64,000 nt of DNA from a virus. Taxonomy: Duplodnaviria > Heunggongvirae > Uroviricota > Caudoviricetes. Under the pieces are notes generated by a model that ran no database searches, was not told the DNA's origin, and worked only from the letters and a program-made list of their open reading frames with translations. The translations under genes and the position numbers were made by a program. The DNA is taken from IMG/VR virus record IMGVR_UViG_3300033494_000001. One strand, 5' to 3'. Each line of letters starts with the position of its first letter. Within the stretch, counting starts at the first letter, position 1. This document shows, piece after piece, positions 52,092 to 53,406 of this stretch.

Positions 52092-52181
52092 TGTTTTGAT
52101 TTTGTTGTTAATAAATAATAATGAATTAAAAATGGAAATTAAACATGTAATTTTGGCGAGCCGTTAACGGGCTCGAGTTTT

Positions 52182-52202
52182 AGAAGTAACATGTTTATAG
52201 CC
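52182..52202 (+). repeat. 21-nt motif copy 1 (AGAAGTAAC-N6-ATAGCC)
   Basis: ~90 nt upstream (minus sense) of the start of gene 51723..52091; followed by palindrome GGCGAGCCGTTAACGGGCTCG. Confidence 0.55.
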
Positions 52203-52214
52203 AAGTATATGGAC

Positions 52215-52278
52215 ATAGAAAGCAGACAGGTGTGCGGATTTGAACCGTTATCATCCGGTCGAAACCAGAAGAATTGAA
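52215..52278 (-). ncRNA. small structured RNA between motif copies 2 and 1 (UUCG-tetraloop and T-loop-like hairpins)
   Basis: rc contains GGTTTCGACC (UUCG tetraloop hairpin) and CGGATGATAACGGTTCAAATCCG; not a canonical tRNA. Confidence 0.3.
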
Positions 52279-52281
52279 CCT

Positions 52282-52302
52282 AGAAGTAACCTATCTATAG
52301 CC
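52282..52302 (+). repeat. 21-nt motif copy 2
   Basis: AGAAGTAAC-CTATCT-ATAGCC. Confidence 0.55.
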
Positions 52303-52364
52303 ATGAAAATGCAAAAGAAATTGGGAATTAAATTAGTAATTTTTACGATTACGAATGTAGAATT

Positions 52365-52385
52365 AGAAGTAACTAATTTGTAGCC
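52365..52385 (+). repeat. 21-nt motif copy 3
   Basis: AGAAGTAAC-TAATTT-GTAGCC. Confidence 0.5.
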
Positions 52386-52454
52386 AATTTGTGTTTTAAA
52401 AGAAAATGAAATTGTGTCAGTGGAGTTCAAATTAAGAGTTTGATGCCTTTCGGC

Positions 52455-52476
52455 GGAAGTAACTAGACACATAGCA
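52455..52476 (+). repeat. 21-nt motif copy 4
   Basis: GGAAGTAAC-TAGACAC-ATAGCA; downstream (minus sense) hairpins GCCGAAAGGC and TCAAACTCTTAATTTGA. Confidence 0.5.
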
Positions 52477-52876
52477 TTTTAAAAATGCACTATCTTTCTA
52501 ACTTAATTAGGTTGGGGTATGCCCAAAGATAATACACTGTATTGAAAAAATAAACAACTAATGGGAATCGGCACCCAAAATATCTAGACACTAAAGTAAC
52601 GAAATGCTCCAACCAAGTTAAGATTATTAATCTTACCATCGAATCTTCGCGCCGTCACACTATAACGGTTTATGTCTAATATGTCTGCTAGTACAGTTGT
52701 TTATTTTAAGATTGTTGGTTTTTACTTTAAAAACCTAAAGTCAGCCATAAAAAGATTAAGGTTCATGATTTGAAAACCCTGTAAATAACCAAATCATCTT
52801 TAAATAAAGTTCAGGCCGGAACTTTTTCAAGATTTACAGAGTTTATATTGTTGTAGTAATTATGTAAGTAAAATGA

Positions 52877-52951
52877 AGTGTAGGAGCGGGCTCGAACCGC
52901 TGACCTTTCTTACTTTCGTAAGACTGCTCTAACCTCCTGAGCTACCTATAC
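52877..52951 (-). ncRNA. tRNA-like RNA with canonical acceptor, D- and T-arms but a hairpin (CTTAC-GAAA-GTAAG / 6-nt loop CGAAAG) in place of an anticodon loop
   Basis: rc reads GTATAGGTAGCTCAGGAGGTTAGAGCAGTCTTACGAAAGTAAGAAAGGTCAGCGGTTCGAGCCCGCTCCTACAC; no U33 and no readable anticodon. Confidence 0.5.
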
Positions 52952-52956
52952 GGTCA

Positions 52957-52977
52957 AGAAGTAACTTACATATAGCC
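52957..52977 (+). repeat. 21-nt motif copy 5
   Basis: AGAAGTAAC-TTACAT-ATAGCC, ends 5 nt 5' (minus sense) of the tRNA-like RNA at 52877-52951. Confidence 0.55.
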
Positions 52978-53048
52978 ACTAAGTATTTGTTAAAAGAAAA
53001 GGAAATTTCGCACGTAAAGCTTAAACCCAAGATAAGTGCCCTAAGGGC

Positions 53049-53070
53049 GGAAGTAACGATACGAATAGCC
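53049..53070 (+). repeat. 21-nt motif copy 6
   Basis: GGAAGTAAC-GATACGA-ATAGCC. Confidence 0.5.
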
Positions 53071-53104
53071 TATTGTAAAATAAAGGAAATTGTACATCTA
53101 ATTT

Positions 53105-53165
53105 TTACGAGACAGCTACTCTAACCAACTGAGCTACAAGCTGGGACTCGAACCCAGGACCCGCT
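53105..53165 (-). ncRNA. tRNA-like minihelix: T-arm-like hairpin followed by acceptor/D-arm-like segment, closed by ACAGC/GCTGT stem
   Basis: rc reads ACAGCGGGTCCTGGGTTCGAGTCCCAGCTTGTAGCTCAGTTGGTTAGAGTAGCTGT; order of T-arm and D-arm is the reverse of a normal tRNA. Confidence 0.35.
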
Positions 53166-53170
53166 GTTTT

Positions 53171-53191
53171 AGAAGTAAGATATACATAGCC
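53171..53191 (+). repeat. 21-nt motif copy 7
   Basis: AGAAGTAAG-ATATAC-ATAGCC; ends 5 nt 5' (minus sense) of the element at 53105-53165. Confidence 0.5.
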
Positions 53192-53406
53192 TTATGTATT
53201 TTTATTCAGGTAGTGGACACATACTAATAATAGTAATATGTCGAGGATGAGCCCAACTATTTCTGTTAGCTAAACATTCTTTGATTGATTGAACAATGTT
53301 TGGATTCGGCAATGTTATTGAAACTTCATCATTTTGAAAATTTTGTGCCGTAAAAGTTTCTACAGCATAATCAGGAACTAGTAAAAAGCAAACAAAGTAG
53401 TTCATT

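Follow-up and report, generated by a model that had tools for sequence, protein, structure and literature searches.

A tandem array of seven structured RNA units with tRNA-like modules, probably of the Y-RNA type, in a Caudoviricetes genome fragment

Conservation of Y RNAs and Ro60 extends from bacteria to humans, and YrlA, a Y RNA of bacteria and mycobacteriophages, contains a tRNA-like domain; both phage Y-RNA-like RNAs and the tRNA-like domains of YrlA are already known. Here, we analyze the interval 52100-53210 of a 64,000-nucleotide stretch of viral DNA (hereafter, the window) from the IMG/VR Caudoviricetes record IMGVR_UViG_3300033494_000001. This 1.1-kb gap contains no long open reading frame (ORF) and is probably a tandem array of seven modular small RNAs of the YrlA/Yrl type, with tRNA-mimic modules carried by a shared, putatively Ro60-docking terminal stem (the chassis). 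We prefer this reading because the same chassis is tied to Ro60/TROVE genes of other phages.

In Thermus phage phiLo, the phage Ro60 binds two upstream Y-RNA-like RNAs, Yrl1 and Yrl2, and forms complexes with the host PNPase (PMC12135203). Like the window units, these are tandem phage RNAs with a stem-internal loop-stem organization and a conserved loop motif, the comparison being one of architecture; in contrast to the window units, they adjoin the phage Ro60 gene and are defined by a CGAA motif, and the text consulted reports no tRNA-like module in them (PMC12135203). YrlA (RF02553) of M. smegmatis is cut by RNase P and acquires CCA (PMC4201824), and GNCGAAN0-1G is the proposed Rsr-binding site of YrlA (Chen et al., 2014; PMC4201824). 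In Salmonella, the rsr-yrlBA-rtcBA operon responds to tRNA damage (PMC7790460), and in Bas63, the Ro60-like gp130 adjoins the Bas63 tRNA genes and counters the Ppl defence (PMC11482910).

The seven units of the window (52134-53191) are arranged in tandem on the minus strand, that is, the gene strand, and are built around the motif GGCTAT-N6-7-(G/C)TTACTTC, which occurs seven times in the interval and 10 or 11 times in the 64-kb window, on the minus strand only. The layout of a unit is GGCUAU-stem-GUUACUUC-payload-stem'-AAUUUCC, with a U-rich tract behind each unit; some units precede ORFs. The variable N6-7 part of the motif is complementary to 7-8 nt located just before the downstream AAUUUCC-like box, e.g., AAACAUG/CAUGUUU, AUGUAAG/CUUACAU, and AAAUUAG/CUAAUUU. 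Unconstrained best-complement scoring of N7 was uninformative, and box-anchored tests were used instead; searches for the inner helix take the best match, and the controls were run by the same procedure. Complementarity of at least 0.93 was observed in 12.8% of 86 non-redundant units as compared to 0.2% of mismatched pairings (Mann-Whitney p = 2.5e-13), and the outer positions are paired in 73-82% of units versus 41-46% in the controls (with unbiased choice of the box), the counts in these statistics, as well as in the locus statistics given below, being inflated by related sequences.

Conservation in relatives tells the same. Among six orthologs of unit D (alignment A4), six out of eight chassis-stem pairs have changed on both sides, and 92.7% of cells are paired, a value reached in none of 500 shuffles, with slid registers yielding 23-41%; the first loop of this unit is a GNRA tetraloop in five orthologs (GAAA, GUAA, GCGA, and, twice, GUGA), and GUCAA in the sixth one, L006. 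Since N6-7 covaries with the downstream segment, the motif is likely transcribed as the 5' strand of a payload-enclosing stem and is not just a promoter. As in YrlA, the window units have a terminal stem formed by the 5' and 3' ends and containing a conserved internal loop. The structures, their covariation, and the association of the chassis with Ro60 genes of other phages are observed directly, and we infer protein binding, expression, and function of the array RNAs in this phage.

We also considered the motif as a general phage or host promoter and rejected this, both due to the covariation of N7 with the downstream segment and because all copies in Bacteroides phage crAss001 sit beside the TROVE gene; a scan for sigma-70-type promoters showed no enrichment. 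Nor does the motif represent a known self-cleaving ribozyme, as no Rfam match to one was found in 51500-53800. The first-pass annotation, a model's reading of the letters alone, had placed each tRNA-like element of the interval behind a motif copy. Indeed, such a copy precedes each of the three main elements, but the RNAs do not merely lie behind it, the motif being the 5' half of the covarying stem that encloses them.

The tie between the chassis and Ro60 comes from other phages. A pattern scan of IMG/VR for a D-arm and CGAAAG produced 32 loci of two kinds, complete C-GAAA-G-capped cloverleafs and YrlA-like elements, the GAAA and D-arm features of this set being partly due to the construction of the search. 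In the YrlA-like kind, found in unrelated high-GC phage contigs, the T-arm has (G)UUACUUC 10-20 nt away on its 5' side, with flanks that pair, e.g., GGGAUCGGC...GCCGAUCCC; in seven out of ten scanned cases, the ORF adjoining the array encodes a TROVE + vWA protein, i.e., Ro60. To guard against selection bias, we retrieved 80 phage TROVE loci with the protein as the sole criterion. TACTTC was found on the coding strand at most 1 kb upstream of the TROVE gene in 73 of them, the upstream coding strand having on average 2.19 copies per locus, compared to 0.375 for the other strand and 0.1 within the gene. Full pairing was seen in 31% of copies for the inner helix (3% in the controls) and in 49% for the outer helix, which played no part in the selection (1.7% in the controls). 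The consensus for these loci comprises the outer helix, the 5' loop UgGuGaA, N8, UUACUUC, the payload, N8', the 3' loop gnuugUUcc, and the outer helix again; the TROVE-linked 5' internal loop (UGGCGAAG / UGGUGAAG) equals or nearly equals GNCGAAN0-1G, many copies reading GGCGAAG. Via these phages the likeness to YrlA extends to the genomic setting, with the same chassis at most 1 kb from a TROVE gene and on its strand, and several RNAs per locus.

Two genomes illustrate this. Phage crAss001 (NC_049977) has the full motif five times in 101.7 kb, all of them at 96176-96750, a single 600-nt stretch in the 900-nt gap directly downstream of the TROVE gene Gp96, where the record has no annotation. 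This cluster resembles the window array in its 5' box (G(U/G)(G/C)UAU-like), N7, UUACUUC, N7', and UUCU/UUCC box, and also in having tandem units, five in number here, interrupted tRNA bodies, a host lineage in Bacteroidota, and an SPFH/band-7 gene nearby; it differs by the adjacent TROVE gene. The gap immediately upstream of the TROVE gene of Xanthomonas phage Olaya, a genome with 66.6% G+C in which no tRNAs are annotated, is taken up by four units; T/D tRNA-like payloads are seen in two or three of these, and the chassis, as far as checked, occurs only beside this gene. The chassis is present in phages of hosts as different as Bacteroides and Xanthomonas.

In the window, two elements match known RNA families, and the Rfam 15 scan of 51500-53800 with E-values up to 10 yielded only tRNA and YrlA matches. 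The YrlA model (RF02553) matches 53088-53186 of the minus strand, in unit A, with 35.5 bits (E = 1.7e-5 locally and 4.8e-4 for the whole window). The T-arm of this unit, CUGGG-UUCGAGU-CCCAG, is followed after 3-4 nt by the D-arm, and ACAGC/GCUGU closes both. This permuted arrangement of T-arm and D-arm inside a closing stem, with paired ends, resembles YrlA in part, the acceptor-like hairpin being absent; the conserved 5'-strand motif of the window units takes the position of GNCGAAN0-1G. The T-arm, the D-arm, and the closing stem covary: ACAGC/GCUGU of the window corresponds to UCAAGU/AUUUGA in the ortholog from L008 (3540-3649; Rfam YrlA score 40.2 bits, below the threshold of 69), and a G-C pair of the T-stem is changed to A-U in L106. 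The T-arm-like hairpin and the acceptor/D-arm-like segment placed at 53105-53165 in the first pass correspond to the permuted T-arm and D-arm of 53112-53167. The T-arm-to-D-arm junction, used as an exact pattern, had no match in IMG/VR.

The second match, at 52877-52951 of the minus strand in unit C, scores 37.4 bits with the Rfam tRNA model RF00005, above the gathering score of 29 (E = 1.1e-5 in a 2.3-kb search), disappears under the filters applied to the whole window, and is labeled 'tRNA-???' with a 6-nt loop by ARAGORN. Similar to canonical tRNA, as well as to non-decoding mimics (the tRNA-like domain of tmRNA, mascRNA), the element 52878-52951 has acceptor, D- and T-arms and passes the tRNA threshold. 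It differs from canonical tRNA by an A3-C70 mismatch, by the lack of an encoded CCA, and by the arm between the D- and T-arms, which is a 6-bp stem UCUUAC/GUAAGA with a GAAA cap (loop CGAAAG); it has no 7-nt anticodon loop, U33, or readable anticodon. With this capped stem in place of the 7-nt loop, the element cannot decode, and the initial description of a cloverleaf with a GNRA-type hairpin at the anticodon-loop position agrees with both the Rfam match and the fold. Together with the permuted elbow of unit A and the D-armless mini-structure of unit F, whose UUCG and T-loop-like hairpins, first placed at 52215-52278, were recovered by folding at 52228-52281, it confirms the presence of non-decoding tRNA-like RNAs in the interval. 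Folding z-scores of the main elements as single sequences are unremarkable (-0.6 to -1.9), and hence it is the family models and covariation that support them, rather than folding energy.

Remote tRNA-like pieces similar to those of the interval had also been proposed. One of them, 28793-28852, forms a small cloverleaf-like fold (z = -2.96), but two others are marginal: 40600-40675 has a 7-bp acceptor stem and a T-arm with z = -1.0, and 41047-41125 scores a sub-threshold 25.3 bits with the tRNA model. No motif copy was found in front of any of the three.

Compensatory changes that preserve structure, the check suggested in the first pass, were found in L106, L008, L006, and L051/L100. The close relative L106 covers units A to F. 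Between it and the window, the chassis of unit C is identical and the acceptor, D, and T sequences of the cloverleaf differ, UCUUAC-GAAA-GUAAGA being retained; in all counterparts of unit C (L106, L008, L051/L100), these three sequences differ and the C-GAAA-G cap is constant. In L008, whose TerC is 79% identical to that of the window, the same layout is observed downstream of TerC: a YrlA-like unit, here with the acceptor-like hairpin and closed by a different stem, another permuted T/D element, a unit D homolog, and a CUAC-GAAA-GUAG cloverleaf. In L051/L100, a GAAA-capped cloverleaf comes after the unit D homolog. In unit F, the T-loop hairpin is kept in L006 and L106, while the first hairpin has compensatory substitutions and, in L106, is swapped for a different stem. 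The spacer between units C and D is approximately 230 nt shorter in L106. Coordinates are given in Table 1.

Table 1. RNA features of the window: the array units, the spacer that separates two of them, and related elements outside the interval.
Feature	Coordinates	Strand	Description
Unit A, chassis	53085..53191	minus	GGCUAU-GUAUAUC-UUACUUC ... GAUGUAC-AAUUUCC
Unit A, payload	53112-53167	minus	permuted tRNA-like 'elbow': closing stem ACAGC/GCUGU, variable-loop-like GGGUC, T-arm, 3-4-nt linker (no acceptor hairpin), D-arm
Unit B	53001..53070	minus	chassis stem UCGUAU/ACGUGCGA; payload opens with hairpin GCCC-UUA-GGGC (53038-53048); near-identical in L106
Unit C, chassis	52855..52977	minus	stem AUGUAAG(U)/(A)CUUACAU; 3' box AAUUAC
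Unit C, payload	52878-52951	minus	cloverleaf tRNA mimic; 6-bp arm with GAAA cap replaces the anticodon stem-loop
Spacer, units C to D	52480..52854	minus	about 375 nt, no chassis motif; predicted to be strongly structured (minimum free energy -84.5 kcal/mol for 52480-52876)
Unit D	52407..52476	minus	chassis stem GUGUC/GACAC; payload 52427-52454: hairpin GCC-GAAA-GGC, then UCAAA-CUCUUAA-UUUGA
Unit E	52323..52385	minus	chassis stem AAAUUAG/CUAAUUU; 3' box AAUUCCC; short AU-rich payload
Unit F, chassis	52217..52302	minus	stem AGAUAGG/CCUGUCU; 3' box GCUUUC
Unit F, payload	52228-52281	minus	closing stem, 6-bp UUCG hairpin, T-loop-like hairpin CGG-UUCAAAU-CCG (3 bp)
Unit G	52134..52202	minus	chassis stem AAACAUG/CAUGUUU; 3' box AAUUUCC; hairpin CGAGCC...GGCUCG (52157-52175)
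Extra chassis unit	57804..57876	minus	outside the interval, downstream of the 703-aa ORF
Extra chassis unit, short payload	48079..48137	minus	motif copy
Second anticodon-less cloverleaf	48145-48217	minus	7-bp arm with CAGG cap; Rfam tRNA 37.2 bits
Class-II-like tRNA body	47939..48069	minus	acceptor CCGGAGA/UCUCCGG; anticodon region split by a 54-nt insert

The cloverleaf of unit C belongs to a larger class. Arms were parsed per sequence, because stem lengths vary, in 18 anticodon-less cloverleafs from the clade and from unrelated phages, and double compensatory changes were seen in 13 of the 16 pairs that make up the acceptor, D, and T stems. The replacement arm is 4-8 bp long, with a 4-nt loop in 15 out of 18 cases; the loop is GAAA in 11 out of 18, partly by construction, and UAGG, UCGC, or CUCG in cases found by ARAGORN outside the pattern selection. 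For the second such element of the window (48145-48217), the ARAGORN call of a 'tRNA-???' with an 8-nt loop and 'anticodon cagg' could have indicated a quadruplet decoder, which we rejected, as the element folds into a mimic with a CAGG tetraloop. At least some of the many 'undetermined' tRNA calls with 6- or 8-nt loops in phages are anticodon-less mimics, rather than odd decoders. In the 463-kb phage contig L035, two anticodon-less cloverleafs with GAAA and CUCG caps and encoded CCA are located 400 nt apart on the minus strand (10222-10297 and 10618-10692).

Another type of association between tRNA and the chassis is seen in interrupted tRNA bodies. In the window, the 54-nt insert of the class-II-like body contains the chassis 5' module AGCUAU-AUAUUAG-UUACUUC (47992-48011), and the same type of interruption occurs in L069, L075, L081, L083, L101, and L122, as well as in crAss001 at approximately 96,300-96,560 (L293 5120-5500). 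The acceptor, D-, and T-arms are intact, the break is at the 5' edge of the anticodon loop, and the junction is built of a 3' box, then a spacer and a 5' box-N7-UUACUUC; several of these bodies have a 7-nt anticodon-like loop right after UUACUUC(UA). These bodies could be split tRNAs, intron-like inserts, or Y-RNA/tRNA chimeras. Also on the minus strand of the window, a T-arm with the 3' acceptor strand CGGGGCC (48477-48500) lies approximately 150 nt upstream of the matching GGCCCCG and D-arm (48304-48328), an arrangement that has the look of a permuted tRNA.

Several observations weigh against the Y-RNA-like reading, at least as far as the window is concerned. An hmmsearch with a profile built from seven phage TROVE proteins found no TROVE/Ro60 gene in the 64-kb window, in the 9 kb beyond one of its ends (L296), or in approximately 40 low-GC loci of the clade. 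The neighboring 297-aa protein is, judging by its predicted structure, a generic vWA protein without a Ro60-like fold: when it was considered as a divergent Ro60, hhalign matched the MIDAS motif only, and the AlphaFold model (pLDDT 69) matched generic vWA domains, not Ro60; the vWA protein at 54418-55041 and the 703-aa protein found no support as Ro60 candidates either. The 5' box GGCUAU is divergent and fails to match GNCGAAN0-1G; it and AAUUUCC are closest to the internal-loop sequences of crAss001 (GUGUAU and UUGUUCU), where the GNCGAAN0-1G position reads AGUGUAU. The YrlA score of unit A is half of the gathering score of 69, and the acceptor-like hairpin, present in L008, is absent from this unit in both the window and L106. 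The window units further differ from YrlA in the invariant UUACUUC after the inner helix, absent from the Rfam consensus, and in the number of units, seven versus one or two. The chassis also heads mRNA leaders, namely, those with unit G, which sits in the 5' leader of the 122-aa ORF, and with the units at 57876 and 28373, whereas a pure small-RNA model needs none. Finally, anticodon-less cloverleafs outside the clade lack the chassis, and several have an encoded CCA; thus, the cloverleaf module may have a Ro60-independent role. As no TROVE gene was found here and the internal-loop sequences have diverged, Ro60-type docking in this phage is something we infer.

If the array does consist of Y-RNA-like RNAs, the 5' and 3' regions of each RNA would close a terminal stem composed of a short outer helix, an internal loop (GGCUAU / AAUUUCC), and the covarying 6-8-bp inner helix, with the invariant GUUACUUC at the mouth of the loop above the latter. 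Grafted on this chassis would be the permuted T/D elbow, the cloverleaf with a GNRA-type cap, GNRA-capped hairpins, and the T-loop mini-structure. By analogy with Ro60-Y RNA particles, the chassis may dock a Ro60/Rsr-type protein encoded elsewhere in the phage or by the host, the tRNA-like modules may engage tRNA-binding factors or exoribonucleases such as PNPase, and RNA decay, RNA quality control, or responses to tRNA damage might be redirected during infection.

A broader and distinctly tentative version is that phages possess a portable RNA chassis, a stem of the Ro60-docking type with an invariant UUACUUC, bearing interchangeable tRNA-mimic modules (cloverleafs, elbows, split-tRNA halves), and that the array of this lineage, working without a phage Ro60, might capture the host Rsr/PNPase or another partner, neutralizing tRNA-directed immunity or reprogramming RNA decay. 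Were this true, UUACUUC and the class of anticodon-less cloverleafs would be previously undescribed, widespread parts of the phage-host RNA conflict, and an array working without its own Ro60 would indicate hijacking of host RNA surveillance. The invariant UUACUUC, the two-helix chassis common to Bacteroides and Xanthomonas phages, arrays of up to seven units, cloverleaf payloads with a capped anticodon arm, and an array without an adjoining Ro60 gene were not found described in the literature searched, and literature queries with the motif strings or on phage tRNA decoys yielded nothing relevant. The signature composed of the outer helix, the internal loop, the inner helix, and UUACUUC finds such RNAs in hundreds of phage contigs; the locus and its relatives form a natural series of swapped modules on one chassis, and crAss001 with Gp96 and five units provides a cultured system where binding and function can be tested.

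The setting of the array, a phage with approximately 20 tRNAs and a tmRNA, would be plausible for a tRNA-directed conflict, in which the cloverleafs and elbows act independently of Ro60 as decoys competing for host tRNA-targeting nucleases, toxins, or tRNA-processing or modifying enzymes, and the chassis provides stability only. This would agree with the failure to find a Ro60 gene in the 64-kb window and the 9 kb beyond one end, and with the presence of anticodon-less cloverleafs without the chassis, several of them encoding the CCA end, in many unrelated phage tRNA clusters. We consider this explanation unlikely, as it accounts neither for the link between the chassis and TROVE in 73 out of 80 loci nor for units with non-tRNA payloads; moreover, the array RNAs have no anticodon loop, which most known anticodon nucleases read, and the cloverleaf 52878-52951 carries the A3-C70 mismatch and lacks CCA. 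At the same time, the Y-RNA-like reading is compatible with a role as decoy or in tRNA damage. Of the decoy, CCA/RNase P processing, and primer functions proposed in the first pass, none is specifically favored by the evidence.

The tandem arrangement of units, the U-rich tracts, and the location of some units before ORFs could also fit cassettes for expression or processing, where the motif and the box are a phage promoter and terminator or a nuclease-processing signal, and the tRNA-like folds mark cleavage by RNase P/Z-type enzymes, as in the cutting by RNase P and the attachment of CCA reported for M. smegmatis YrlA (PMC4201824). Similarly, the motif-less relatives L009 and L011 carry a pistol ribozyme at the equivalent position downstream of TerC. 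Here, however, the variable part of the supposed promoter covaries with a site 40-100 nt downstream and thus acts in RNA, the crAss001 motif is confined to the vicinity of the TROVE gene and absent from other genes, approximately 20 genuine tRNAs of the window have no motif, and a generic scan predicts no minus-strand terminators in the interval, all of which makes such cassettes decidedly improbable.

Decayed or rearranged tRNA genes, non-functional remnants of recombination and of the insertion of a mobile junction element into tRNA genes, might be suspected from the interrupted and permuted pieces of the window (47939-48069; 48477-48500 with 48304-48328), the weak fragments 40600-40675 and 41047-41125, and the modest folding z-scores. 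Remnants, however, would not be expected to preserve their stems through compensatory changes among relatives 79-87% identical and more distant ones, to retain a constant GAAA cap while the rest of the cloverleaf diverges, or to be maintained as arrays beside Ro60 genes in very different phages, and this origin appears very improbable. Least credible is that chassis units serve to transcribe the halves of split or permuted tRNA genes, which would then be put together or ligated to give functional tRNAs, for, despite bodies being broken at the 5' anticodon-loop edge by a 3'-box/5'-box junction in the window, six clade loci, and crAss001, and 7-nt anticodon-like loops directly following UUACUUC(UA) in several cases, the three main elements have no anticodon loop at all, N7 of the interrupted units has no 3' partner, and none of the scanned ORFs was identified as a ligase or splicing endonuclease.

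The distribution of the motif was assessed by several scans. A metagenome scan for two tandem motif copies produced at least 119 loci, and, among the matches listed, approximately 40 have two or more copies on one strand. The scan of bacterial genomes with the tandem motif yielded 49 loci, mostly single chance matches; four of them, L164, L168, and L186 (Acidobacteriota-type metagenome-assembled genomes, MAGs) and L179 (a 'Deltaproteobacteria' MAG), have at least two copies in apparently real units, and no TROVE gene was found at these four loci. Units of the form GGCUAU-N7-GUUACUUC ... GUUUCCG/GUUCCCG are present in the contigs L164, L168, L186, L092, and L163 with 52-56% G+C, the first three being binned with Acidobacteriota/Pyrinomonadaceae MAGs, and hence this chassis variant extends beyond the low-GC Bacteroidota phages. 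Over the interval 52100-53210, four metagenome contigs are identical to the window, and a search of GenBank phage DNA with 50000-56000 gave no match. L001 and L002, considered as relatives via the 297-aa protein (52% identity), are too distant to be informative and lack the RNA cluster; the TerC relatives L009, L010, and L011 were rejected as carriers of the array, having no motif and a pistol ribozyme instead, just downstream of TerC at the position equivalent to the array (L011 11033-11093, 57.8 bits; L009 11163-11222, 54.8 bits).

The 64-kb window has a G+C content of 32% and looks phage-like, with all sizeable ORFs on the minus strand. The gap that contains the array is flanked by a TerC-like gene and a 67-aa ORF upstream and by the 122-aa ORF (51723-52091) downstream. 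At 53407-57260 of the minus strand there is a tellurite-resistance-type set consisting of TerD, a HAD hydrolase, PRTase_3 (ComF-like), a vWA protein (TerF-like), and TerC, which is kept in L008, L009, and L011. On the other side, 49600-51723 of the minus strand encodes, in adjacent genes, a small helical protein, the 297-aa vWA protein, and an adenylosuccinate-synthetase-like protein (best PHROG of the PurZ type). ORFs of matching size and order flank the vWA homolog in L002 (9597-12015), homology being confirmed for the vWA protein only; its family, for which Pfam has no model, numbers over 7,600 relatives sharing 53-60% identity.

According to ARAGORN and Rfam, the RNA complement of the window comprises approximately 20 tRNAs, one tmRNA, and a group I intron. 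The intron (110 bits) and two partial group I matches nearby are located at 7661-7902, 7372-7558, and 6677-6709 of the minus strand. Two minus-strand tRNAs, 40516-40587 (48.7 bits) and 36096-36180 (43.2 bits), are Rfam matches missed by ARAGORN, and the phage-encoded tmRNA at 46453-46788 (minus strand) specifies the tag GETKVITMVARRSSMRLAA.

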